This document shows positions 2,843-16,516 of a stretch of 38,582 nt of DNA, in pieces. The position numbers were made by a program, and so were the translations under genes. The stretch's first letter is position 1, and every line of letters starts with the position of its first letter. The notes under the pieces were generated by a model. That model searched no databases. It was not told where the DNA came from and saw only the letters and a program-made list of their open reading frames with translations. This DNA comes from an uncultured Gammaproteobacteria bacterium (GTDB lineage Bacteria > Pseudomonadota > Gammaproteobacteria > JABDGN01): assembly GCA_964456955.1 (NCBI GenBank), contig CAYWDC010000001.1, positions 1 through 38,582 of the forward strand, given 5' to 3'.

Positions 2843-3853
2843 TTAGGTAACTTTTGTAAAGTGCAACCATCGCGCTAGATCTTTAGCGAAGTAAGTAATT
2901 ATAAAATCAGTACCAGCTCGTTTGAGAGCAAGCATATTTTCAATGACCACACTTTTTTCATCAAGCCAACGCCTTTCTGCAGCTGCCTTAATCATCGCGT
3001 ATACACCGCTGACATCATAAGCAGCAAGTGGCACTTGCGGAAACTTTTGTTTAACACGATGGATGATATCTAAATTGGTGATTGCAGGTTTTATCATAAT
3101 GATATCTGCACCTTCGGCAATATCAAGCTCAGTTTCACGCAAGGCTTCATTGGTATTGGCCACATCCATCTGATAGCTTTGTCGATCGCCGCGTTGTGGC
3201 CCACTATCGGCAGCGTCACGGAATGGACTATAGTAGGATGACGCATATTTGACGCTGTAACTTAAAATGGGTACGTGTTGATAATTTGCTTGGTCCAAGG
3301 CACGACGAATTACTTGCACCATTCCATCGATCATGCCGCTTGGCGCAAGCATATCGACACCCGCATTAGCATGTGCAAGCGCTTGTTTTTTCAGGATTTC
3401 TAAGGTTTTATCATTGTTGACATCTAACCTGCTCACGGTTTCGTCAAGGATGCCGCAGTGTCCATGATCAGTAAACTCACAACAACAAATATCGCTGATT
3501 ATCAGTAAATCGGGTGCCATGCTTTTTATTTGGCGAATCGCCTGCTGCACAATACCGTTATCACTGTAAGCATCTGAACCGTAGCCATCTTTTTTTTGTG
3601 GAATGCCAAACAATAACACCGCAGGGATATTTAAGGTCTGGATGTTATTAATTTCAACAGACAAATTTTCTAGGGTAATTTGATACTGTCCTGGCATGCT
3701 AGCGATAGGAGTGTTTGCGCCTCGAACATGCTTGATAAACAGTGGGTAAACGAAATCATTGATGCTAAGGTGCGTTTCACGTACCAAGTCACGCACTTTT
3801 GGGTGATAGCGTAAGCGGCGTAGTCGTGTTGTTGGAAAAGAGGTGTTAGTCAT
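2843..3853 (-). CDS. hemB: Porphobilinogen synthase (delta-aminolevulinate dehydratase), Zn-type
   Basis: Motifs are the N-terminal TTRLRRLR, the cysteine-rich metal site DICCCEFTDHGHCG, and the active-site Lys region IMIKPA. I place the start at ATG 3853 (MTNTSFPTTRLRRLR), which overlaps the tolC stop in ATGACTAA. The track ORF extends 11 codons further, to 3886. Confidence 0.9.
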   Translation of the reverse strand: MTNTSFPTTRLRRLRYHPKVRDLVRETHLSINDFVYPLFIKHVRGANTPIASMPGQYQITLENLSVEINNIQTLNIPAVLLFGIPQKKDGYGSDAYSDNGIVQQAIRQIKSMAPDLLIISDICCCEFTDHGHCGILDETVSRLDVNNDKTLEILKKQALAHANAGVDMLAPSGMIDGMVQVIRRALDQANYQHVPILSYSVKYASSYYSPFRDAADSGPQRGDRQSYQMDVANTNEALRETELDIAEGADIIMIKPAITNLDIIHRVKQKFPQVPLAAYDVSGVYAMIKAAAERRWLDEKSVVIENMLALKRAGTDFIITYFAKDLARWLHFTKVT

Positions 3854-5327
3854 CAGGTGGTTTTTTAGTGATTTCTTTTGCCGCATCTTGTTCTAGCACC
3901 ATAGACTCTTCATTGCTGTTATCTTGTTGTAATAATTTATTTTGCACAAGGAGGTTTTGCTGTTTTTTTAACTCGGATGTTGCTTCATGCTTAGTATTAT
4001 GCGCCTCGCTGTTTGGCACATTGGTGAGATAAAGGTTGACTTGCCGTAAGTCATTGACGCCAAGGATGCCGACAGCTTTTTTCAGTTTAAAGGTGTTAAT
4101 GATATGATCAAACAGATCACTGGTATAGTTTTGTTGACTCTGGTAAAGTTTTGCTTGTGCGCTCAATACATCAGCGATGGTTTTTGTACCAACTTGATAA
4201 CTTGCTTCATTACTTGCTAAGGATGCCTTTGCCGAGTTGATTGCTAGTTTGTCGGCTTTAATTTTGCTGATGTCTGCAGACAACTCCAAGTAGGCATTAC
4301 GAGCCTCAGCGAGGATTTTCCGATGGGTCTGATCTGTGGCAGCGACGGCGATTTGGTAATTGTATTCAGCCGTCTTGGTTTCAGCGCTGTACAAGCCACC
4401 TTGATATAGTGGTACATTTAATGTGACGCCGATTGTTGAATTATAGTACTCTGATTTTCTAAAATAATCATGAGTGTAATTATAATTGCCATTTAAGCGG
4501 AGGGTGGCCATTTTTCGTGCAGATGTTGCTTTAATATTCTCTTTTGTTGCTAGTGCATGATAGCGAGCTGCCATCAGGCTTAAATTATGTTGTTCTGCTG
4601 CTTTAGCCCATTCATCGATGCTTGCCGGGGCTGGTTTTACTAACGGAAAACTCTCTTTGAGCTTGGCGAGGGAACGATAAAACTGTCCAGTGATTTGCCA
4701 TAGCGCTTCCTTATCACTGGCTAATTTATTTTCCGCAGCAAGGTAAGATGCTTTTGCCAAAGCATAGCTGGAGCGTGCATCGTAAACGGACGTAATGGTA
4801 TCTAAGCCAACCTTATAACGTTGCATCGCTATTTGCAGTGAACTGTACAATTGTCGTACATTAGCCATAGAATAATCGAGTACGGCCAGGTCTTTTAATA
4901 TGGTAAAATAAGCGGTTGCAGTGCGCATGATAAGACTTTCCATTGCAACACCGTAATCGGCAGCTGCCGATTTAACATCGAGCTTTATCTCTTTATAATT
5001 TTTCAACTTACTCAAATCGAATAAACTTTGATTCAATGACAAGGTGGCGTCAAACTGGTTAGTCGGACTGAGATAACGCCTACTTCTATCCACGGTCTTA
5101 TTCTGACTACTTTCTAGGTTCAAGTTGGGTAAAAAAGCGGCGCGTGCTTGTGGCAGTTTCGAACGTGCGCTCATATAAGTTGATTTTGCCCGCTTATAGG
5201 TGGGATCACTGGCTTGTGCTTGTCGGTAAACTTGCAGCAGATTAGTGGCCGGGGCTTTGGTAATGTTCCCCACTAATATCATGATGCAAAATAAAAGTGT
5301 TAGTTTTTTTACTGTCTTTATTGTCAT
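3846..5327 (-). CDS. tolC: TolC-family outer membrane efflux channel
   Basis: 493 aa. There is an N-terminal signal peptide (MTIKTVKKLTLLFCIMILVGNITKAPA). The TolC-like repeat begins LLQVYRQAQASDPTYKRAK...LPNLNL, and a second repeat half and a hydrophilic C-terminal tail follow. Confidence 0.85.
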   Translation of the reverse strand: MTIKTVKKLTLLFCIMILVGNITKAPATNLLQVYRQAQASDPTYKRAKSTYMSARSKLPQARAAFLPNLNLESSQNKTVDRSRRYLSPTNQFDATLSLNQSLFDLSKLKNYKEIKLDVKSAAADYGVAMESLIMRTATAYFTILKDLAVLDYSMANVRQLYSSLQIAMQRYKVGLDTITSVYDARSSYALAKASYLAAENKLASDKEALWQITGQFYRSLAKLKESFPLVKPAPASIDEWAKAAEQHNLSLMAARYHALATKENIKATSARKMATLRLNGNYNYTHDYFRKSEYYNSTIGVTLNVPLYQGGLYSAETKTAEYNYQIAVAATDQTHRKILAEARNAYLELSADISKIKADKLAINSAKASLASNEASYQVGTKTIADVLSAQAKLYQSQQNYTSDLFDHIINTFKLKKAVGILGVNDLRQVNLYLTNVPNSEAHNTKHEATSELKKQQNLLVQNKLLQQDNSNEESMVLEQDAAKEITKKPPDD

Positions 5328-5782
5328 CAGCAGAGCTTACGTATCTCGTACACTCAAGTATTGGATATAAAATGTTTTTTTACTCAACTTACTGCCTGCG
5401 CCGGAACCTGTGATGAATCATCACCTGCTTTTTTGCTGTTTCACCTATACTTGTAGTGAATAAATGCTCATGTCAATTACGTATGCTGATATTCCTGGCA
5501 GCATGCGCAAGATACATGCAAGATGAGATTTTGCCGGTCAACTGACCAGGGTTTCCGGGCAATATTGTCGTTCATCTACATCTTTTGATTTTTATTGTCT
5601 GTTAAAGTATACACGAATATAATGCAAATAAAATAAAAAATCATGGTGGTTACCCGCGGCGAAATCCAACTCTGAATGTAGGGTTAGTGTTGCGTCGTAG
5701 GATAAGTATCAATAAGTCCTACAACAAAGGAGCTGCGCTTAACATAGGTGTACAATACGCGCCTGTCCAGTATAATGATATT

Positions 5783-6529
5783 ATGAAAATAAATGTACTA
5801 CAAATTACTGACTGCCATCTATTTGCTGACTCGACCCAGCAGCTAAGAGGTGTCGATACCGAGCAAAGTTTTTTACGGGTATTAGCAGCAATTTGTGCGA
5901 CCACAAGAACCCCAGACCTTATTTTATTAACTGGGGATTTGGCAGATCTGGGCGAAGCCGATGCCTATCGTCGTTTGCTGACACATTGTCAGCGATTGAC
6001 TTGTCCGGTTTTTGCAATCCCGGGTAATCATGACCAAGTGGCTGTGATGAAGCAAATATTCAAAGATAGCAAAATTTCCATGAATCCATCCTTTGTCCGA
6101 GGTGGCTGGCATGTTATTTTGTTGAATTCGGTAGTGCTAGGCGATGACGAAGGCACGCTTGCCCCGAGTGAATTACATTTTCTGCAAACAGCATTGACAC
6201 ATTATGCTACATTGCCAACATTGATTGCCTTGCATCACCACGTGAAACCCGTTCATGGTTATATGGATACGATGATGTTAACCAATGCTGATCTGTTTCA
6301 TGAGATTATCACAGCGCATAAGAGTGTACGTGTGGTGCTGTCTGGCCATGTGCATCAAGCTTTTGAGGAATCATGCAATCATGTAAGGTATCTCGCCAGT
6401 CCATCCACTTGTTTTCAAATTAAAGTCAATATTCCCGAATTTACCAAAGATGAAACATCGATGCCTGGCTATCGCTGGTTAGCATTATATGACGATGGTA
6501 AAATCGAAACCGAAGTGGTTAGGGTTTAA
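5783..6529 (+). CDS. cpdA: 3',5'-cyclic-nucleotide phosphodiesterase CpdA (metallophosphoesterase)
   Basis: Metallophosphoesterase motifs are present: ITDCHL, LTGDLAD, GNHD and SGHVHQ. I use ATG 5783 (MKINVLQITDCHLF). The track ORF starts at GTG 5687 and adds a basic, non-conserved 32-aa extension. The position after tolC matches the E. coli tolC / nudF-yqiB-cpdA-yqiA-parE neighbourhood. Confidence 0.85.
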   Translation: MKINVLQITDCHLFADSTQQLRGVDTEQSFLRVLAAICATTRTPDLILLTGDLADLGEADAYRRLLTHCQRLTCPVFAIPGNHDQVAVMKQIFKDSKISMNPSFVRGGWHVILLNSVVLGDDEGTLAPSELHFLQTALTHYATLPTLIALHHHVKPVHGYMDTMMLTNADLFHEIITAHKSVRVVLSGHVHQAFEESCNHVRYLASPSTCFQIKVNIPEFTKDETSMPGYRWLALYDDGKIETEVVRV

Positions 6530-6586
6530 TCGTTAATGCACCTGCGTGATATGGCCATGAAGTGGTAGAGTCAAATAGGAAGACTC

Positions 6587-6663
6587 ATGGCAAAAAATTA
6601 TAGTGCTAAGATATTGTAGTATTAAACGGTCTTGAACTGGTACAATGTCGTACTGGGTATGTG
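6587..6663 (+). pseudogene. parE: parE (topoisomerase IV subunit B) 5' stub, frameshifted and truncated
   Basis: Hand translation gives ATG 6587 MAKNYSAK, then a stop after two more codons. A shift of +1 at about 6610 gives DIVVLNGLELVQCRTGYV. Joined, MAKNYSAK/DIVVLNGLELVQCRTGYV matches the ParE/GyrB N-terminus (E. coli ParE MTQTYNADAIEVLTGLEPVRRRPGMY) at 11 of 23 aligned positions. No similarity continues past about 6663. The stub lies 58 nt after cpdA, where parE normally sits. Confidence 0.6.
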
Positions 6664-6700
6664 CTTCGACGCATCCAAATGTTCTTATGGCTACCCAGTT

Positions 6701-6718
6701 ATTTGTGAAGTCACAAAT
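6701..6718. promoter_or_regulatory. Perfect 18-bp palindrome ATTTGTGA-AG-TCACAAAT, a candidate operator upstream of the MFS gene
   Basis: Read directly from the sequence. The 8-bp arms are perfect reverse complements and lie 46 nt upstream of ATG 6764. An extended -10-like TGgTACAAT lies at 6638-6646. Confidence 0.35.
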
Positions 6719-6763
6719 CAGTTCATAATATTTTTATCTTGTAAAATCTAACAAGTCTATTTT

Positions 6764-8002
6764 ATGTCAATTAAAATGATAATCATTAGTGTCGCTGTTT
6801 GGCTTGTTGCCACAGTGTTTTATTCGTTGGATTACTTCCAGCATGCCTCCCCCAGTGTATTGTTAATGCCGATTGCCGTGTCGATGCATATGGATGTGAA
6901 TACTGTTGTCGGCGTCATGGCGATTTATTGGCCTGTGTATGCGATATCGCAGCTCCCGGTAGGTTGGTTGCTTGATCGATATGGTTACCAATGGGTCTTG
7001 CCGATTTGCTGCACGATTATGAGTGCGGCTATCGTTATATTTTCGCACATTCCGGTGCTACCTATCATGTGGTTAGCACGAATATTTATCGCCATCGGTT
7101 CTGCCGCCGCTTTTTTAGGGGTATTGAAAGTTGCTGCGATGATGCTGCCCAACTCTATTTTCCCTGTGGCGGTGGGGTTAACCAATACCATTGGCACGTT
7201 GAGTGCCATATTTGGCCAAGTGTTGCTAAGCTATGGTATTACACATTTGGGTTGGCAAAACGCATTGTCGTTGATTGGTTATTTTGGCTTAATATATGGT
7301 GTTGTGCTGTATCTTTGCTTGCGTATCAAGACGCAGACCAAGCATAGTAATATTTCGCGCAAATTATCTTTACAACATTTGGGTGTATTGCAGTCAAAAG
7401 AACTCTGGTTTATTGCCCTTTATGCGGGTCTTATGGTTGGCACGGTTGTTAATGCGTTTTCTGAGCTTTTTGATGTTGTTTTTTTACAATATACTTACCA
7501 CTTAACCGCTATAAAAGCCGCGTCAATCAGTTCCACTATATTTATTGGCATTGCAGTTGGCGGACCCAGTCATGGTGTGATTAGTGCGTTGATAGGTGGC
7601 AAAAAGCGATCGATGATCATTGCAAATCTGTTAACGATTGTCATTTTCGGTATCATTGTATTATTGCCTGCTGCACTGAGTGTGCTTTCTTTATATGTGC
7701 TCTATTTTTCTTTAGGCTTTTTTATTTCCAGTATGTTACTGGCTTTTTCAGTGGTCAATGATATTTTTCCCAATGAAATGCAAGGAACGGTGTTGGCAAT
7801 CGTGAACATGGTTATTGGTTTGTGTGCCGCTTTTTTTCAGCGCTTCATTGGTCATGTCAGTGCCTGCATCAATGGCGGTGACATTAAAATGATAAATAAT
7901 CCCCATGTTTTCACTTTATCGTTTATTTTCTTGTTATGTCCATTGATGTTAAGCTTTGTTTTATTATTATTTACGCGTACGCGTTATAAGGTCATGATTT
8001 AA
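6764..8002 (+). CDS. MFS transporter (12-TM type), substrate unknown
   Basis: 412 aa and highly hydrophobic, with about 12 predicted helices. The loop 2-3 region LLDRYGYQWV resembles the MFS signature. The specific subfamily was not recognised. Confidence 0.7.
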   Translation: MSIKMIIISVAVWLVATVFYSLDYFQHASPSVLLMPIAVSMHMDVNTVVGVMAIYWPVYAISQLPVGWLLDRYGYQWVLPICCTIMSAAIVIFSHIPVLPIMWLARIFIAIGSAAAFLGVLKVAAMMLPNSIFPVAVGLTNTIGTLSAIFGQVLLSYGITHLGWQNALSLIGYFGLIYGVVLYLCLRIKTQTKHSNISRKLSLQHLGVLQSKELWFIALYAGLMVGTVVNAFSELFDVVFLQYTYHLTAIKAASISSTIFIGIAVGGPSHGVISALIGGKKRSMIIANLLTIVIFGIIVLLPAALSVLSLYVLYFSLGFFISSMLLAFSVVNDIFPNEMQGTVLAIVNMVIGLCAAFFQRFIGHVSACINGGDIKMINNPHVFTLSFIFLLCPLMLSFVLLLFTRTRYKVMI

Positions 8003-8120
8003 ATACGCCAGATTAATTAAATGATCGGTTGGTTAACATTTTTAACTAAGATTGCAGATTTAAGTTTGGCTAAGTCTCGTTGTTAAATTGACTAGTATGA
8101 ATATATAAGACAAGGTTACT

Positions 8121-8470
8121 ATGACAGAATCGCAGCCGTTGCACCTGTTCACTGAGAAGGCGTATCTTAACTATTCCATGTATGTGTGATCCTCGATCGC
8201 GCCTTACCTCACGTTGGTGATGGCTTAAAACCGGTCCAGCGTCGCACTATCTATGCCATGTCGGAATTAGGTTTAAATGCGTCGGCAAAATATAAAAAAT
8301 CGGCACGCACCATCGGTGATGTGTTGGGTAAATTTCATCCGCATGGTGATAGTGCTTGTTATGAAGCCATGGTACTGATGGCACAAGATTTTTCCTATCG
8401 TTATCCTTTAATCGATGGACAAGGCAATTGGGGTTCACCCGATGACTCAAAATCATTGTCAACGGAATAG
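8121..8470 (+). pseudogene. parC: parC (topoisomerase IV subunit A) 5' fragment with a +2 frameshift, truncated
   Basis: ATG 8121 gives [22 protein letters not shown] then TGA. The frame starting at 8186 continues [89 protein letters not shown]. This is nearly identical to the E. coli ParC N-terminus, including the QRDR. An extra TG in GTGTG (8184-8188) breaks the frame. The fragment ends ...KSLSTE-stop, where ParC and GyrA carry KSxAAMRYTE with the catalytic Tyr. Confidence 0.85.
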
Positions 8471-8487
8471 ATAGGCAGTGGTAGTAG

Positions 8488-8516
8488 TTGACATTAGATG
8501 CCAGTAATCCTATTTT
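8488..8516 (+). promoter_or_regulatory. Candidate sigma70 promoter for ppc (TTGACA, 17 nt, TATTTT)
   Basis: TTGACA lies at 8488-8493, followed by a 17-nt spacer and TATTTT at 8511-8516, about 70 nt upstream of the ppc ATG. This is a sequence match only. Confidence 0.3.
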
Positions 8517-8586
8517 ACTATATTAACTGTTTTAGGGATTAACTAAATATTATAGTGGCAATTGAATAGAAAGGGAAAACCTTATC

Positions 8587-11205
8587 ATGGCAGCAATAAA
8601 ACGCACAATAAGCGATGACATCCATATCTTAGGCGATTTATTAGGACAGATACTGAGGCTGTATGAGGGAGAATCGACTTATGCCTTAGTAGAAAAAATT
8701 CGTATTTTATCAAAATCTTCGCGAGAATCTGAGAAAGATTTACAGACGTTGCATCGTCTCATTCATGATGTGCCAGACGACCTGACACCCCAGTTAGCAA
8801 GGGCGTTTGGCCAGTTTCTACATTTAGCTAATATTACTGAATCTTATGATAATCAACGGCAGTTACGCCAACAACCAGAACCTCTGATGGCTATGTTGCC
8901 TAAGCTGTTAAAAAAGAAACTCTCTGCTAAAAAGATTGCTAACGCCTTACGTGAGCAACAAATCGAATTAGTATTGACTGCACATCCTACAGAGGTCAAA
9001 CGTCGTACTTTGATTCAAAAGTATAGTTATATTGCTGGTTTATTAGAGCAACGTGATCGTATAGAAATGACGAAAGATGAGATTGCACATTGGCAAGATA
9101 AACTGAAAACAACAGTGAATGCTATTTGGTTAACCGATGAAATTCGTCGCGTTCGTCCCACCCCAGTTGAAGAAGCTAAGTGGGGATTTGCCATCATCGA
9201 GGATACGCTTTGGCATGCTATACCACAATATTTTCGGCAACTTGATGCTGCTATGCAAAAGTACTTAGGAGAAAATTTGCCGTTAGATTGCACCCCTATT
9301 CGAATAGGGTCTTGGATGGGTGGTGATCGTGATGGTAACCCTCACGTTACGGCGGCAGTGACTCAGGAAGTATTGCTACTCGCGCAATGGGTGGCTATGG
9401 ACCTTTATACACGAGAGGTTAATCACATGATACAGCATTTGTCGTTGCATGCATGTAACGAATCATTGCGCCAAAGTGTGGGAGAAACCTCTCAACCTTA
9501 TCGAGCGTGTCTGCGTATTTTACGCGATCGTTTAAAAGCAACAGGTGCTTGGTTACAATCCCAATTGGCTGGCCATACAATTGAGCCTAAGATGTCGTTG
9601 ATATTATGTCGTGAAGATTTATTGCAGCCTTTGATGCTTTGCTATCAGTCATTGTTAGATTGTAATGCAAGTGCTATTGCCAATGCTGACCTGTTAGATT
9701 TAATTCGTCGCGTACATGTATTTGGTATCTCGTTGATGCGTTTAGATATCCGCCAAGCAGCTGATTATCATACGGAAGCTATCGCTACCATTACAAATTA
9801 TTTTGGCTTAGGTAACTATGCAAACTGGTCAGAACAAGAGAGATGTTTATTTCTGCAACAAGAACTAGGCAACAAGCGATCTTTACCGTTAGCTGAGTTA
9901 ACCGTTAGTGAAAACGTTCAGGAGGTATTTGACACTTGCCTATGTATTGCAGCACAAAATCCTGACATCATGGGTGCTTATGTAATTTCTATGGCCAGTG
10001 CAGCGTCGGATGTTTTAGCCGTACATTTGCTGCAAAAAGTGGCGGGTGTGAAACAGCCAATGCGTGTGGTTCCGCTCTTTGAGACACTTGATGATCTAAA
10101 TCATGCTGCCGGTGTGATGCAAGCGTTATATAATATGCCGATTTATAAGAACATGCTAAATGGCCAACAGGAAGTTATGATTGGCTATTCAGACTCAGGT
10201 AAAGATGCCGGCAAGTTAGCCGCTAGTTGGGCACAATATGAAGCACAAGAACAGCTACTTCATGTATCGCAACAAGCAGACATACAATTGACTATATTTC
10301 ATGGTCGTGGTGGTTCAGTTGGTAGAGGTGGCGGGCCAGTGCATGCTACCTTACTGTCTCAACCGCCAGGTTCTGTACAAGGTCGCATGCGCGTAACCGA
10401 ACAGGGTGAGGTGATCCAACAGAAATATGGGTTGCTTACTTGGGCACAGCACAATCTCATGTTGTATAGTGTTGCGATGTTAGAGGCAACACTCATACCA
10501 CCGCCAGAGCCTAAACCAGAATGGCGTGAAATAATGGCTCAAATATCAGAAATTTCATTACATGTGTATCGAAAAATAGTGAGGGAGAATCAAGATTTTG
10601 TCACGTACTTTCGACAGGTAACGCCAGAACAGGAATTAGGTCGATTGTTAATTGGTAGTCGACCCAATAGACGTAAAGCAAAGGGTGGTATTGAAAACTT
10701 GCGTGCCATTCCTTGGGTATTTGCCTGGACACAAACACGCTTGATGTTACCAACCTGGTTGGGTATCGGCGAAGCATTAGACGCGTTATGGTCTAAGCAA
10801 AAAGATATGTTGTGCGATATGCTCAATGACTGGCCATTTTTCTCTGTGTTAATAGATATGCTTGACATGACGCTAACTAAGACTGACATTGATATTGCTG
10901 CTTATTACGATGCTTGTTTAGCAAGCCCGGAGACCAAAACATTTGGTGCCGATCTGCGTCGCCGGTTAAAACAGACCGAGGAGATAGTACGAGTCATTGC
11001 TGCCAATCAGACTTTTCAGGAACCGCAGCAGAACTTATATAAGTCTCTTAAGGTGCGTAACACTTATGCGGATCCGTTGAATTTCTTACAGGCGGAAGTT
11101 ATGAGGCGATTACGTCAAGGAAGGGTACATAATAAGGCAGCTTTGGAGGACGCATTGGTTTTGTGTGTCGCTGGGATTGCGGCAGCAATGAAGAATACGG
11201 GTTGA
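8587..11205 (+). CDS. ppc: Phosphoenolpyruvate carboxylase
   Basis: 872 aa and intact. Motifs are VLTAHPTEVKRRT, GYSDSGKDAG, FHGRGGSVGRGGGP and the C-terminal ...AAMKNTG, the canonical Ppc terminus. Confidence 0.95.
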   Translation: MAAIKRTISDDIHILGDLLGQILRLYEGESTYALVEKIRILSKSSRESEKDLQTLHRLIHDVPDDLTPQLARAFGQFLHLANITESYDNQRQLRQQPEPLMAMLPKLLKKKLSAKKIANALREQQIELVLTAHPTEVKRRTLIQKYSYIAGLLEQRDRIEMTKDEIAHWQDKLKTTVNAIWLTDEIRRVRPTPVEEAKWGFAIIEDTLWHAIPQYFRQLDAAMQKYLGENLPLDCTPIRIGSWMGGDRDGNPHVTAAVTQEVLLLAQWVAMDLYTREVNHMIQHLSLHACNESLRQSVGETSQPYRACLRILRDRLKATGAWLQSQLAGHTIEPKMSLILCREDLLQPLMLCYQSLLDCNASAIANADLLDLIRRVHVFGISLMRLDIRQAADYHTEAIATITNYFGLGNYANWSEQERCLFLQQELGNKRSLPLAELTVSENVQEVFDTCLCIAAQNPDIMGAYVISMASAASDVLAVHLLQKVAGVKQPMRVVPLFETLDDLNHAAGVMQALYNMPIYKNMLNGQQEVMIGYSDSGKDAGKLAASWAQYEAQEQLLHVSQQADIQLTIFHGRGGSVGRGGGPVHATLLSQPPGSVQGRMRVTEQGEVIQQKYGLLTWAQHNLMLYSVAMLEATLIPPPEPKPEWREIMAQISEISLHVYRKIVRENQDFVTYFRQVTPEQELGRLLIGSRPNRRKAKGGIENLRAIPWVFAWTQTRLMLPTWLGIGEALDALWSKQKDMLCDMLNDWPFFSVLIDMLDMTLTKTDIDIAAYYDACLASPETKTFGADLRRRLKQTEEIVRVIAANQTFQEPQQNLYKSLKVRNTYADPLNFLQAEVMRRLRQGRVHNKAALEDALVLCVAGIAAAMKNTG

Positions 11206-11349
11206 GGGCGGTAGTTGAGAAGGGAATATAATATTGTGTCCATATACCTCGATTTAAACTCATAGTTTCCAGTTTCGCTAAATAACATGCGATTTTATAG
11301 AGAATTGCTTCTGGTTAATAATATAAGCAAAAATACACCATAATAATGA

Positions 11350-11862
11350 GTCCGCAGTAATCTTAAATGGGGGCTGTCGATTATTGTTTACTCTAAAATC
11401 AGTTTTGCAAGGCACCCTGTATTGACCTCCATTACCCATTTAACTCAGAAAGTAAAAAGCATGACTTTACAAAATTTCAGGTTAACTCGTTTGGATAGCT
11501 AAATAAACCGACAAAGCCTAAATGTGATGAATCTAAATCTAGTGAATAATTACTCTAATCGTGTGGTGGTCACCAACACGGGATATTTGTTGCTGTTCGC
11601 AGTCAATGAACTGCCGCAATTGGCCAAGGGTAAAGGGAATAAGATGATCAATATTCCGATGGCAAAATACAAGGACAAAGAAGAATACATTGTCGATGTT
11701 GCGGTGTTGCACAGTAAGCAAGCATGAGTATTTTATTCTTGGAAACGGCAAATCACCTTAAAAGCAAAAGATCTGGCTCGTTATCTTGGGAAGCGTGGAC
11801 AACGTGGCAGCAAATTACCGCGCGGTTACCAGCGCGTAAGCCGCATAGCGGTCGTTGTGTAA
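11350..11862 (+). pseudogene. parC: parC 3' relic in a single frame with two in-frame stops
   Basis: The frame of ORF 11524..11727 reads NRVVVTNTGYLLLFAVNELPQLAKGKGNKMINIP. E. coli ParC has ITQAGRMLMFPVSDLPQLSKGKGNKIINIP. After TGA at 11725-11727 the same frame continues ITLKAKDLARYLGKRGQRGSKLPRGYQRVSRIAVVV-stop at 11860-11862, matching the ParC tail KLRPEELQKVTGERGRRGTLMRGLQRIDRVEI. Upstream, the same frame carries TAA at 11500-11502 and weaker ParC-like sequence back to the triple stop at 11341-11349. Confidence 0.8.
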
Positions 11863-11996: not shown

Positions 11997-12019
11997 ACCT
12001 TGCAATGACAAGGTTTTTT
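11997..12019 (+). terminator. Rho-independent terminator-like hairpin (ACCTTG-caatga-CAAGGT plus T6)
   Basis: A 6-bp perfect stem and 6-nt loop run directly into TTTTTT. It lies 135 nt after the parC relic stop and only about 25 nt before the ilvE ATG. Confidence 0.4.
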
Positions 12020-12044
12020 ATTTTCATCTAGAGGATGACGGGTG

Positions 12045-12965
12045 ATGCAGCCGACAGCACATATTTGGCAAAATGGACAGTTTGTTCCTTGGCAAGAGGC
12101 CAACACACATGTGCTGAGCCATGGATTGCATTATGGTAGTGGCGTATTCGAAGGTATCCGTTGCTATGAAACCCCACAAGGTAGTGCCATCTTTAAGTTA
12201 GCTGCCCACGTGGCCCGATTAGTCTATTCAGCTAACGCCTTGGGCATGCAATTACCCTATAGTGAAGCTGAGCTGTGTCAAGCCATAACAGACACCGTGG
12301 CTAAGAACCGATTGCAGGCTGGGTACATCCGTCCGTTAGCCTATTATGGTTATGGTGCGTTGGGGGTCATGCCGAGTAAAGAGTTACCGATTGAAGTGGT
12401 TATTGCCTGCTGGCCTTGGGCAGACTACCTAGAAGCACCAGCCGTGGATATTAAGATCAGTGATTTTATTCGTATTCATCCACAATCAAGTGTTGCCGAC
12501 GCAAAAATTTGCGGTCACTATGTCAATAGCCTGTTGGCCCGCACTGCGCTTCGTGATACTCATTACCATGAAGCCTTACTGCTCGATCATGACGGTTTTG
12601 TTGCTGAAGGCAGTGCAGAGAATATCTTCATTGTCCGTGAAGGTCACCTGATCACCACGCCATTGGGCACCATTTTACCGGGTATCACCCGCGCCACGGT
12701 CATGGAGATGGCAGCAAACAGGGGATATGCGGTGAGTGAAGAGCGTTTCACACCCGCGGCGGTGCTGGCAGCCGATGAAGCCTTCTTCTGTGGTACCGCA
12801 GTAGAGATTGTGCCGATCCGCTCGCTCGACGACCAATTGATCGGCAATGGTGAGCCAGGACTCATTAGTCAGCAATTGCAACAGGCGTATCAAGCCATTG
12901 TCCATGATAAAGATGCCGATTTCATGGACGCCTTAACCAGGGTTAATTTCGTAGCAGGAGTATGA
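12045..12965 (+). CDS. ilvE: Branched-chain amino acid aminotransferase (fold type IV)
   Basis: 306 aa from ATG 12045, with GAGGA 9 nt upstream. The N-terminus IWQNGQFVPWQEANTHVLSHGLHYGSGVFEGIRCY, the later EGSAENIF and GITR are typical of IlvE. Confidence 0.9.
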   Translation: MQPTAHIWQNGQFVPWQEANTHVLSHGLHYGSGVFEGIRCYETPQGSAIFKLAAHVARLVYSANALGMQLPYSEAELCQAITDTVAKNRLQAGYIRPLAYYGYGALGVMPSKELPIEVVIACWPWADYLEAPAVDIKISDFIRIHPQSSVADAKICGHYVNSLLARTALRDTHYHEALLLDHDGFVAEGSAENIFIVREGHLITTPLGTILPGITRATVMEMAANRGYAVSEERFTPAAVLAADEAFFCGTAVEIVPIRSLDDQLIGNGEPGLISQQLQQAYQAIVHDKDADFMDALTRVNFVAGV

Positions 12966-13026
12966 ACGTATCAACAGAGTAGATTACGATTCTTGTTACT
13001 AGTAGCCTTGATAGAGATATAAGTAC

Positions 13027-14427
13027 TTATGGCCCATTGTTAGACAATTTGCTACGATTTTCTTCTAGGTAGGATAATAGTTTTGCCGTTGTAATGCTTA
13101 TTAATGCAATTAACGTAAATAATGAGCACATCAGTAAAACGTGGATAAGATTCGCCTGTGAAATTTTATAGATGGTATCATTTTTCACAATAGTGGTAGA
13201 TAATATGACACCGACTAAACTGCCTATTAAAGTACTCATATAAAATATTCCCGCCGCCATTCCTGAATGTTCTTTTTTCACTTCTTTGAGCGCTAAAATT
13301 ACTAGCGCTGATGATAGCAGACCGTAACATAGACCTGGGAAAATAAGTAACAGCATAATCTGATACGCCGATATATTGTGAGCAAAACTGAACACAAGAT
13401 ATAATATCGAAAAGCACAGGCAACTTGTAATAATAAAAGGCAGCTCTCCATATTTTTTAATTAAATGTCCACTGGTTGGGGCTATTATTCCTACGACAAT
13501 CGACATAGGAAATAGTAACAACCCTGATTTGATGAGTGAGAATCCCATATTGTTATTTAAGTACAAACTGATGATGTAAATAAAACTATAGAAACTCAAA
13601 TTAGTTAATATCCTCAATGCACAGCCTAAAAGAAAGGGCCTATTGGTTAAAATAGAGATGTCAAACAAAGGAGCTTTTGTTTTTTTCTCAGAGACGAAAA
13701 ATAGTACAAACAAAATAATCGATGCGGATAGCAGTAAAAATGCTACCAGCTTTCCGTGAGTCATTTGACTAGTAGTTAATATAGCCATGATTAATAAACA
13801 CAGTGATACGGCGAAAAGCATGAATCCAACAATATCAACCTGTTTTTCTGCTACCGTTTTTTTTATTTTAGGGCATACATAAACAGAAATAAGCATTAAT
13901 ACAGCCAAAGGGGCATCTATTAAGAAGAACCAGCGCCAACTGAAATAATTTACTAGAAAACCGGCGATTGCCGGCCCTACCGTCATGGAAATTCCCACCA
14001 TCCCAGTTAGTATGCCAAGTAAGAAGTGTTTCTTTTCCTCGGAAGCACTTTTGAGAATCACGGCCGTTGCATTTGGCAAGATCATACCGGCAGCCAATCC
14101 TTGCATTAATCGCGATATTATTAACTCACTATAAAGATAGCTGATACCAATAACAAAAGACGCAATGCCAAATGCCGCTAAACCAAGCGCAAGAAGTTTC
14201 TTGTTGCCATGAATATCGCCAATTTTCCCGGTCAATGCGATCGACACCGAGAATGTTAACAAGTAGCTTATATTGACCCATTCTATTTGTAAAAATGATA
14301 AAGCTAGTTCTTTCCCTAACGGCTGAATGATGATAGGCATGCCAGTGTAACCAATGCCGACAACTAAAATGGCGAGGAGCATTGAAAACAGCACGTAAAA
14401 ATAGGATTTTTTAATCATAATTAACAT
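13027..14427 (-). CDS. MFS drug/H+ antiporter, DHA2 (EmrB/QacA-like, 14-TM) family
   Basis: 466 aa with about 14 hydrophobic segments. The motif-A-like GKIGDIHGNKKLL after TM2 and the length fit DHA2. It is markedly AT-rich: a hand count of line 13501-13560 gives 33% GC, against 47% for a metK line. Confidence 0.7.
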   Translation of the reverse strand: MLIMIKKSYFYVLFSMLLAILVVGIGYTGMPIIIQPLGKELALSFLQIEWVNISYLLTFSVSIALTGKIGDIHGNKKLLALGLAAFGIASFVIGISYLYSELIISRLMQGLAAGMILPNATAVILKSASEEKKHFLLGILTGMVGISMTVGPAIAGFLVNYFSWRWFFLIDAPLAVLMLISVYVCPKIKKTVAEKQVDIVGFMLFAVSLCLLIMAILTTSQMTHGKLVAFLLLSASIILFVLFFVSEKKTKAPLFDISILTNRPFLLGCALRILTNLSFYSFIYIISLYLNNNMGFSLIKSGLLLFPMSIVVGIIAPTSGHLIKKYGELPFIITSCLCFSILYLVFSFAHNISAYQIMLLLIFPGLCYGLLSSALVILALKEVKKEHSGMAAGIFYMSTLIGSLVGVILSTTIVKNDTIYKISQANLIHVLLMCSLFTLIALISITTAKLLSYLEENRSKLSNNGP

Positions 14428-14573
14428 TATGGATTATAGCTGGTATTGATTCGATTGACAAAAGTCAGTGAATGAATAATTATGACTATTTTACCACTAT
14501 CTTGAACAACGGCATCCTACTAATGTAGGCAAAAAATACGGTATAATCTTGAAAAAATTGCTAGGAGTTGCCT

Positions 14574-15731
14574 TTGGTCAACTATCAACTGTTTACGTCG
14601 GAGTCAGTGTCCGAGGGGCATCCTGACAAGGTTGCCGATCAAATTTCCGACGCTATTTTAGATGCCATTATCGAGCAAGATCCGCAAGCACGCGTTGCCT
14701 GCGAAACGTTTACCAAGACGGGCATGGTGGTTGTTGGTGGTGAGTTATCGACCTCTGCCTGGGTGGACCTAGACGAGTTAGTACGTGATGTAGTCAATAA
14801 CATCGGTTACACTAGAGCAGAATATGGTTTAGATGCGATGTCTTGCGCCGTATTATCGGCGATTGGCAAGCAGAGTGATGATATTGCCCAAGGTGTCGAT
14901 GCCACGACATTACAGGGTATGGGCGCGGGTGATCAAGGCATGATGTTTGGCTATGCCAGCAACGAAACCGACGTATTGATGCCAGCACCGATCACCTATG
15001 CACATCGCTTAGTTGCACAACAGGCCAAGCTACGTCATCGGGGTGATCTTGCCTGGCTGCGTCCAGATGCAAAAAGCCAAGTCACTATCCGTTATGTTGA
15101 TGGCCAGCCAGTTGCCATCGATACGGTGGTATTATCGACACAACATGATCCCAATATTAAACAAGCGGAGCTGGTCGAAGCGGTGCGCGAAGAGATCATT
15201 AAGCCAGTGTTGCCAGAAAGATGGCTCACCACAGCAACCAAGTATTTTGTCAATCCGACCGGTCGTTTTGTTGTTGGAGGGCCACAAGGTGACTGCGGTT
15301 TGACCGGACGTAAGATTATCGTTGATACCTATGGCGGTATGGCTCGTCACGGTGGCGGTGCATTCTCTGGTAAGGATCCGTCAAAGGTCGATCGCTCAGC
15401 CGCTTATGCTGCCCGCTATGTGGCAAAAAATATTGTTGCCGCGGGACTTGCCGATCGATGTGAGATTCAATTGTCTTATGCTATCGGCATGCCAGAGCCG
15501 ACATCGATTAGCGTTGATACCTTTGCTACCGGAAAAATTACTGATGAGCAAATTGTCGAGTTGGTGCGAGAAAATTTCGATCTGCGCCCTGGTGGTATCA
15601 TTACCATGCTCGATTTATTAAAACCAATTTATCGGCCGACCGCAACCTATGGTCACTTTGGTCGTGAGCAAACGACTTTTACCTGGGAAAAAACCGATAA
15701 AGCACAAATCTTGCGTAACGCAGTAAAGTAA
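14574..15731 (+). CDS. metK: S-adenosylmethionine synthase
   Basis: [33 protein letters not shown] and the [23 protein letters not shown] motifs are present. I place the start at TTG 14574, 6 nt after AGGAG (14563-14567), which gives an N-terminus of the same length as E. coli MetK. The track ORF starts at TTG 14568. TATAAT lies at 14542-14547. Confidence 0.95.
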
Positions 15732-15739
15732 CATAAACG

Positions 15740-15760
15740 GTACCAATGGGTTATTGGTAC
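15740..15760. terminator. Hairpin between convergent metK and the methyltransferase gene (GTACCAAT-gggtt-ATTGGTAC)
   Basis: An 8-bp perfect stem with a 5-nt loop lies 9 nt after the metK stop and 16 nt before the opposing stop. There is no clean T-tract on either side, so termination efficiency is uncertain. Confidence 0.4.
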
Positions 15761-15775
15761 ACATGTATGGTTTGT

Positions 15776-16516
15776 TTAGAAGAATTGATATAATCGTGTT
15801 TGATATCTACTATCATGTGTATCATATTGGTATATAATATCGTTTTTCTTGACTGACAGATTAAAGGGGGGCGATGTTAGTTCAACTCCACTATCAATAC
15901 AAAAGCGTGTACTAGGGCCGGTGATAATATCAATGTTGGCTATGAAGTGGTCTTTTGGTAGACATTCCGTAAAAATAAGATAGCGATATTGTTCAAGTTT
16001 TGGGATAATTTTTTGGATATCTTGGTTGGACAGATGCTGTAGTACTTGCCGTAAGCATACGACATCTCCTTTGGGCAGTGGATCTTCAATGATATTTAAC
16101 ACTCGGAAATCTACATCAGTACCCTTAAATTTTTCTTGATTTCGTTTAATAAGAGACTCAACAATGTCGCAAGCGATATATTCTTTACAGAAAGGGTAAA
16201 TTTGTAAACCAACAGCGAAATCACCACAGCCAAGATCGACTAGTTTTACTTTTTTATCGAATTTCCTCAGAAAATTTTTAACAGAATTTACATATCCGTT
16301 TACCAATATGGAGTCATGGGAACCTGGTCCAGAATAAAAATCTTTTTTAGAAGTGGGTTTTCCCCAAAAATTTTCTTTGTATATTTTTGTAAAAACTTGT
16401 TGTGTACTAAGTTTCTTAAATTTCCTAAAATTATATTTAGTTATAAGTACTCTTATAATTTCTGCAACCCAATTGGGCAAGATTCTTTTTGCAAGTTTCC
16501 TAATATCCCATTTCAT
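15776..16516 (-). CDS. Class I SAM-dependent methyltransferase, orphan, substrate unknown
   Basis: 246 aa. Motif I is VDLGCGDF, followed by an acidic residue after beta-2 (ACDIV) and then VVCLRQVLQHL (motif IV-like). It is very AT-rich: sampled lines gave 18% and 42% GC. Confidence 0.7.
   Translation of the reverse strand: MKWDIRKLAKRILPNWVAEIIRVLITKYNFRKFKKLSTQQVFTKIYKENFWGKPTSKKDFYSGPGSHDSILVNGYVNSVKNFLRKFDKKVKLVDLGCGDFAVGLQIYPFCKEYIACDIVESLIKRNQEKFKGTDVDFRVLNIIEDPLPKGDVVCLRQVLQHLSNQDIQKIIPKLEQYRYLIFTECLPKDHFIANIDIITGPSTRFCIDSGVELTSPPFNLSVKKNDIIYQYDTHDSRYQTRLYQFF

Follow-up and report, generated by a model that had tools for sequence, protein, structure and literature searches.

The fate of parE and parC, the two genes for topoisomerase IV (topo IV), which as a rule unlinks daughter chromosomes, was followed in one 38.6-kb contig of an uncultured marine gammaproteobacterium (CAYWDC010000001.1, hereafter the window), which has a continuous counterpart in the JGI data (3300033127 Ga0326847_10000102). 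As judged from the lesions they carry, both topo IV genes are dead at this locus. Little more than the start codon region of parE is left, and parC is split by a segment holding an intact ppc, the gene for phosphoenolpyruvate (PEP) carboxylase. Going by the locus on this one contig, the organism probably lives without topo IV now and relies on DNA gyrase.

Remnants of parE and parC

The parE remnant consists of the ATG at 6587 and ~26 codons; the rest of the gene (~1.9 kb) is deleted. Within the remnant, a 1-nt deletion, a GAA to TAG nonsense codon and a 1-nt insertion were found. In blastn comparisons, window 6578-6656 aligned to positions 10789-10868 of the closest related contig, L009, at 78.8% identity, and a four-way DNA alignment with the parE 5′ ends of L009 and two further relatives (L011 and L107) confirmed the remnant. 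It gave no NCBIfam match, and the GHKL ATPase, transducer and Toprim domains (~630 amino acids) are not present; intact ParE of the relatives is 628-630 amino acids long with all four Pfam domains. Window 5784-6656 aligns to cpdA and the first ~70 nt of parE of L009. The nucleotide homology then stops at 6656 and restarts at 6761, 1,967 bp of L009 (10869-12835, parE) standing against ~104 nt in the window. On this alignment, parE was lost through a plain deletion without any insertion.

For parC, two fragments were identified with TIGR01062 (parC_Gneg; 735 model positions, curated cutoff 628.9 bits). The N-terminal fragment, with a 2-nt insertion removed, matches positions 2-111 of the model (E=1.5e-64, 218.4 bits) and the C-terminal fragment matches positions 630-691 (E=4e-12, 45 bits). 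With the central part of the gene gone, both pieces score far under the cutoff, and they do not amount to a full-length ParC, positions ~112-629 being absent. The N-terminal fragment is 89.6% identical to residues 27-122 of L009 ParC and the C-terminal fragment 74% identical to residues 647-746 of L011 ParC. Window 6761-8457 aligns to L009 from the gene of a major facilitator superfamily (MFS) transporter through parC codon ~121, at 84% identity. Homology to the parC of the relatives ends at 8457-8461 and restarts at ~11551. In between, ParC codons ~122-640 (~1.56 kb) are replaced by ~3.09 kb carrying ppc. The N-terminal homology ends with SPDDSKSL, directly before AAMRYTE, the motif with the catalytic tyrosine (E. 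coli ParC Tyr120). This motif is not in the fragment; it is kept in L009, L011 and all of 80 other ParC sequences.

Each of the parC fragments has also been damaged on its own. The N-terminal fragment is thrown out of frame, into a TGA at 8187-8189, by two extra nucleotides in its TGTGTG run (8183-8188). The C-terminal fragment keeps to one reading frame as far as the natural TAA (11860-11862) and is interrupted by a TGA in that frame at 11725-11727. In an alignment with six ParC sequences this TGA stands at a conserved Leu, and a conserved Gly is changed to Trp. The remnants, with their frameshifts, nonsense codons and changes at invariant residues, are therefore non-functional and evolve without constraint.

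Table 1. Features of the topo IV locus and its surroundings (window coordinates)
Feature	Position	Strand	Evidence and remarks
thiD-thiE-thiM-hemB-tolC block	ends at 5327	-	
hemB	2843-3886		adjoins tolC directly
tolC	3846-5327	-	NF007002 TolC, E=2.8e-93; conserved left-hand anchor of the neighbourhood
cpdA (3′,5′-cAMP phosphodiesterase), intact	5687-6529	+	NF008359, E=5.8e-63
parE remnant	6587 to ~6665	+	
Spacer, ~100 nt	6666-6763		without detectable homology
MFS transporter gene, intact	6764-8002	+	PF07690
parC N-terminal fragment, ~113 codons	8121-8461	+	TIGR01062
Inserted segment, ~3.09 kb, holding ppc	8462-11550	+	
ppc (PEP carboxylase), intact	8587-11205	+	NF000584
parC C-terminal fragment, ~103 codons	~11551 to 11862	+	TIGR01062
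Terminator-like hairpin, then T-run	11997-12014	+	consensus scan; 3′ of the old parC stop; putative function
ilvE, DHA2-family MFS gene, metK	from 12042	+, -, + respectively	

The locus in related genomes

Six related contigs were found through their CpdA homologues (Table 2). In five of the six, cpdA and parE are adjacent and intact. The anchor genes of the window recur in E. coli K-12 (b3019-b3035: tolC, then nudF-yqiB-cpdA-yqiA-parE, with parC further on), where parE and parC are placed relative to them as in the window. In E. coli and these five relatives parE is intact (628-630 amino acids in the relatives) and lies by cpdA, whereas 26 codons are left in the window and parC is split by ppc. 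This synteny identifies the window fragments as the original copies, in the ancestral place, and not as a duplicated segment.

Table 2. Related contigs and their gene order at the locus
Contig	Identity to the window	Gene order
L009	CpdA 70%, MFS 84%, HemB 85%; 42% GC, like the window	hemB-pckA-tolC-cpdA-parE (628 aa)-MFS (413 aa)-parC
L011 (JGI 3300000111)	CpdA 61%	cpdA-parE-three unrelated genes-parC (748 aa)-metK
L105 (Tara SAMEA2611378)	CpdA 60%	cpdA-parE, intact
L010 (ENA ERZ26051057 contig_40)	CpdA 58%	no parE or parC and no remnants at the locus; transposase genes instead
L108	CpdA 53%	cpdA-parE, intact
L107	CpdA 51%	cpdA-parE, intact
aa, amino acids; GC, guanine plus cytosine content.

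The MFS gene lies between intact parE and parC in L009, and it is therefore an ancestral neighbour, not an insertion. Its product has 412 amino acids in the window and 413 in L009, with 84% amino acid identity and nonsynonymous (dN) and synonymous (dS) divergences of 0.086 and 0.54.

An earlier note on this DNA had read the locus as parE′-MFS-parC′-ppc-′parC, a gene graveyard interleaved with cargo genes at the ancestral topo IV position downstream of tolC/cpdA. The order and coordinates of these five elements were reproduced by profile matches and alignments. The claim that both genes are dead fragments also stands, with frameshifts or nonsense codons in all three remnants and AAMRYTE deleted. 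The ancestral position was borne out by cpdA-parE in five of six relatives, by cpdA-parE-MFS-parC in L009 and by the E. coli neighbourhood, and synteny with the six relatives and E. coli agrees with the view of the fragments as decaying originals rather than a duplicated segment. A parE fragment is present as described; it is much smaller than was implied, at only ~26 codons. That an apparently functional gene occupies every gap is true of ppc in parC and not of the MFS gene; the ~1.97 kb of parE went to ~104 nt by deletion. Calling both genes cargo found no support: the MFS gene is found between parE and parC in the sister lineage, and ppc comes without repeats, insertion sequence (IS) ends or transposase remnants. 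Whether topo IV is lost or kept elsewhere, the present result corrects that reading: the MFS gene, counted as cargo along with ppc, is an ancestral neighbour. The graveyard image was overstated for a window that is otherwise 85% coding.

The segment carrying ppc

The ppc product scores 1023.7 bits against the NF000584 cutoff of 815, residues 9-872 covering model positions 2-898, and is a full-length match. Against E. coli Ppc (PDB 1FIY) it aligns over the full length (9-872 to 9-883). The gene has the same orientation as parC, and the insert is made up of ppc with 125 nt on its upstream and ~345 nt on its downstream side. By consensus match, TTGACA-17-TATTTT at 8488-8516 is the best promoter-like site of the region; it is just inside the insert, upstream of ppc.

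In all six relatives, ppc is absent from this locus. The flanks of the insert matched nothing in five other ppc loci (L004-L008), nor in the other sequences compared, by tblastx. No direct or inverted repeats beyond chance level, IS ends, integrase, transposase or remnants of these, or tRNA were found flanking ppc. The nearest ppc homologues (74% and 59% identity) lie directly downstream of tsaB in other genomes, on contigs of 48% GC; no tsaB remnant was detected in the window by tblastn. The GC content at third codon positions (GC3) is 0.37 for the window ppc, ~0.39 for the host and 0.58 for L004. This host-like composition argues that, before landing in parC, ppc resided in this genome or in one of similar composition. 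L004, in which the 74% homologue stands in the order tsaB-ppc, was considered as a sister genome and rejected (48% GC against 42% for the window and L009); a move of ppc from beside tsaB is therefore kept as a possibility only.

Outside its own small clade (74% and 59%), the closest Ppc sequences, at ~55%, are those of Kiritimatiellota (Pontiella), Verrucomicrobia bacterium S94 and Lentisphaera, and that of Pseudomonas is at 51%. This pattern of sequence similarity gives a hint that ppc was transferred long ago between those groups and the gammaproteobacterial lineage studied here.

Relaxed constraint and age of the lesion

Lineage-specific changes between the window and L009 were polarised with L011 as outgroup. 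The parC N-terminal fragment (113 codons) shows five window-specific amino acid replacements against none on the L009 branch. The corresponding numbers for the comparison genes are 15 and 7 for HemB, and 22 and 18 for CpdA. Three of the five replacements (I to T, P to S and F to L) are at sites invariant in 80 of 80 gammaproteobacterial ParC sequences. Against L009, the dS of the window amounts to 0.49 in the parC fragment and 0.54 in the MFS gene. For a rough age estimate, the extra replacements were taken as neutral; they come to ~0.019 per nonsynonymous site, set against a branch length of ~0.245. Roughly, inactivation falls in the last ~8% (Poisson range 3-19%) of the branch that leads from the split with L009 to the window. 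The lesion is recent compared with the split from the sister lineage, yet common to all sampled populations. Comparison of the locus across relatives, proposed in the earlier note as a means of dating the loss, has thus yielded the intact ancestral order as well as a rough date in the last 3-19% of the branch.

Soundness of the assembly

The continuous JGI contig and independent ENA and Logan pieces cover all junctions at 99.93-100% identity, with 0-5 single-nucleotide differences. The ppc-′parC-ilvE side recurs in ENA ERZ27295575 and Logan SRR10694899, and the tolC-cpdA-parE′-MFS side in ENA ERZ23486806. The structure over 5.5-12.5 kb, for which confirmation had been advised, is upheld by independent short-read assemblies at 99.9-100% over every junction. 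Two ENA contigs (ERZ27295575 and ERZ27234785) are exactly window 5988-8555; their shared end points suggest either low library input or repeated assembly of duplicate runs.

Two public assemblies break between parC′ and ppc, one piece (ENA) ending at 8555 and the other (ENA and Logan) starting at 8547, right behind a Nextera adapter (9-nt overlap). Untrimmed Nextera adapter is present at the ends of public MEGAHIT contigs (L002 1-42 and L103 1-21; ENA ERZ27295575). A 9-bp target duplication is expected from a single Tn5 cut in one molecule. The 9-nt overlap and the adapter therefore mark the break as a library artefact, and support contiguity.

Alternative explanations

That the structure is itself an artefact of assembly or binning, for example a chimeric contig in which ppc was stitched into parC, might be thought of for a short-read metagenome contig, two public assemblies of which break at 8547-8555. 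The Tn5 cut, with its adapter and 9-nt overlap, explains this break. The parC fragments lie in correct order and orientation around ppc, and each of them bears inactivating mutations away from the junctions, which chimeric assembly would not produce; together with the agreement of the independent assemblies over every junction, this makes an artefact exceedingly improbable. Another view is that ppc (and, in the earlier note, the MFS gene) is mobile cargo that killed topo IV, the locus serving as an insertion site for a composite transposon or integrative element. The gene is indeed foreign to this position, its nearest homologues being found downstream of tsaB elsewhere. The neighbourhood is patchy in composition (ilvE 50% GC, DHA2-family MFS 37%, methyltransferase 33%), and L010 carries IS1595- and IS4-type transposases at the same place. 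Against this, no repeats, integrase, transposase or tRNA stand beside ppc and its flanks are without tblastx match. The codon composition of ppc is host-like, the MFS gene is demonstrably ancestral, and parE was lost by plain deletion with no insertion at all. Mobile cargo is thus a very unlikely cause of the loss.

Several points speak against an organism without topo IV. Topo IV is essential in the gammaproteobacteria studied. It is reportedly kept even by Buchnera and Wigglesworthia (PMC6547408), which leaves outright loss in this class with a prior that is not high. Apart from the remnants, the window is uneroded (85% coding), and no sign is seen of the reductive evolution usual with core-gene loss. 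L010, in which IS elements replace parE and parC, shows that rearrangement and relocation occur in the clade. The ppc segment may have come by relocation or by horizontal transfer, and the topo IV status of the organism is read from this 38.6-kb contig, not from the whole genome. The organism could keep topo IV through a second parC/parE pair, duplicated before the decay or horizontally acquired, on the chromosome or a plasmid, or could have another decatenating type II enzyme, with the present locus as the decaying original. Where topo IV is essential, compensation must precede loss, and the clade does rearrange this region (IS elements in L010, three unrelated genes between parE and parC in L011). 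The protein and contig searches lacked the power to exclude another copy. In a protein search with the repaired ParC N-terminus, the best 120 matches were generic partial ParC sequences of 82-89% identity over this highly conserved region; L009 ParC was not returned, though it scores 230 bits against 223 for the top match. In a genome-contig scan with L009 ParC (universal pattern CYEAMVLM), the best matches listed were 64-69% identical and taxonomically scattered, and neither the genome of the window nor close relatives were among those listed. A metagenome-contig scan was carried out with a chimeric alignment of lineage-specific ParE and ParC segments and the MFS protein as positive control, only two ParE patterns being used. 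It gave matches of 26-47% identity only and missed the JGI contig of L011 despite both patterns, hence the positive control failed. As known positives were missed, negatives for highly conserved proteins are therefore not readable as absence. On the other side, no candidate for a second copy was seen in these non-exhaustive searches, weak evidence as that is. The best matches (86-89%) were generic gammaproteobacterial ParC without the residues peculiar to this lineage, whereas for a recent duplicate an identity of 93% or more would be expected. Xenologous or duplicated parCE pairs are uncommon. Outright loss, in contrast, is reported to have happened many times (PMC2647321), and bacteria naturally without topo IV, as well as its repeated independent loss, are on record (PMC2647321, PMC6547408, PMC3325230, PMC8216471). 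Retention of topo IV elsewhere in the genome is thus possible, if rather doubtful. We incline, by a little, to a recent loss of topo IV in an otherwise ordinary-looking genome, with gyrase as the only type IIA topoisomerase segregating the chromosome.

Proposed history of the locus

The ancestral topo IV locus had the order tolC-cpdA-parE-MFS-parC, the MFS gene having been present always. One deletion took all of parE but ~26 codons, and a 3.1-kb ppc segment took the place of the central 1.56 kb of parC, catalytic tyrosine included. The leftovers were then hit by frameshift and nonsense mutations and by amino acid changes at residues that are invariant elsewhere. The source of ppc may be a compositionally similar genome, most simply another site of the same chromosome, and its transcription may start at the promoter-like site in the insert or come as read-through from the former parC promoter. 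As the loss of one subunit would make the other useless, both would therefore be dead. Decatenation would then be carried out by DNA gyrase, perhaps with topoisomerase III or XerCD-FtsK, as in Mycobacterium, Helicobacter and Campylobacter.

Neighbouring genes and the clade

Apart from the three topo IV remnants, the window is gene-dense; an Rfam scan of it gave no hits and no RNA genes. CpdA is 70% identical to L009 CpdA over window 5795-6526. The cpdA open reading frame opens at a GTG 36 codons 5′ of the point (5795) at which the CpdA of all relatives starts aligning, and the true start is probably further downstream than this GTG at 5687. TolC has a C-terminal extension of ~37 amino acids overlapping the hemB start (3846-3886). 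Between hemB and tolC, pckA (ATP-dependent PEP carboxykinase) is found in L009, L010, L011 and L107. In the window it is absent from this site, with no remnant detected anywhere by tblastn with pckA, and L108 is likewise without it there. The absence of pckA and the arrival of ppc 4 kb away suggest that PEP/oxaloacetate metabolism was rewired.

Downstream, ilvE (50% GC) and the DHA2-family MFS efflux gene (37% GC) stand between the parC remnant and metK (window 12042-16516). In L011, metK is directly 3′ of parC with nothing between. After metK comes a methyltransferase gene of 33% GC (GC3 0.26) in a window background of 42.5% GC; the ATP synthase operon lies further along. By its composition and gene content, the locus resembles an insertion hotspot, with some inserts probably horizontally acquired.

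At L010 10844-16612, a helix-turn-helix transposase-like gene and IS1595- and DDE_Tnp_1-type transposases are followed by mnmE-yidC-rnpA-rpmH. Like the window, L010 has no parE after cpdA and no parC nearby; it differs in having no remnants, in having transposases and in its gene order. Taken at face value, this gene content shows the same locus disrupted a second time, and independently, within the clade, and it agrees with rearrangement or relocation mediated by IS elements rather than with decay on the spot. Within the clade, L011 (JGI 3300000111; L012 is ENA ERZ508542) is from a shipworm-gill metagenome set (PMC7329324) and L105 from a Tara Oceans sea-water sample. Among the matches listed, ParC of the clade is 64-69% identical to that of named gammaproteobacteria, and from these values the clade appears to be deep-branching and unclassified.

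Relation to known topo IV-less bacteria and significance

Pseudogenes arise by deletion and frameshift during lineage-specific gene loss in host-restricted Mycobacterium leprae and insect symbionts. The course seen here is similar, from large internal deletions to small indels and nonsense codons to changes at invariant sites. Unlike in those organisms, the surrounding 38 kb is uneroded; the related contigs come from sea water and shipworm gill, and host restriction is not established.

The absence of functional parC and parE at the locus is shared with Mycobacterium tuberculosis, Helicobacter pylori, Campylobacter jejuni, Corynebacterium and Deinococcus (PMC6547408, PMC3325230, PMC8216471, PMC2647321). 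The organism would also share with them the need for gyrase to decatenate and a single fluoroquinolone target. In those lineages no remnants are left and the absence was established from complete genomes, whereas here one contig was read. In contrast to them, the remnants are readable at the syntenic site, and the host belongs to a class, the gammaproteobacteria, that normally keeps topo IV. Lineage-specific loss of topo IV is thus known already from other phyla, and what is new is that the remnants are caught in a gammaproteobacterium.

In Gammaproteobacteria, topo IV is regarded as an essential enzyme of decatenation and as a target, primary or secondary, of fluoroquinolones. Should a second copy exist, the locus would be a redundant original in decay, of minor interest. 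If topo IV is truly lost, the list of bacteria with a single type IIA topoisomerase would be extended to a new class. The window and its intact sister lineage would then form a natural before-and-after pair in which compensating changes may be sought, in GyrA/GyrB, the C-terminal domain of gyrase, growth strategy and Xer/FtsK.

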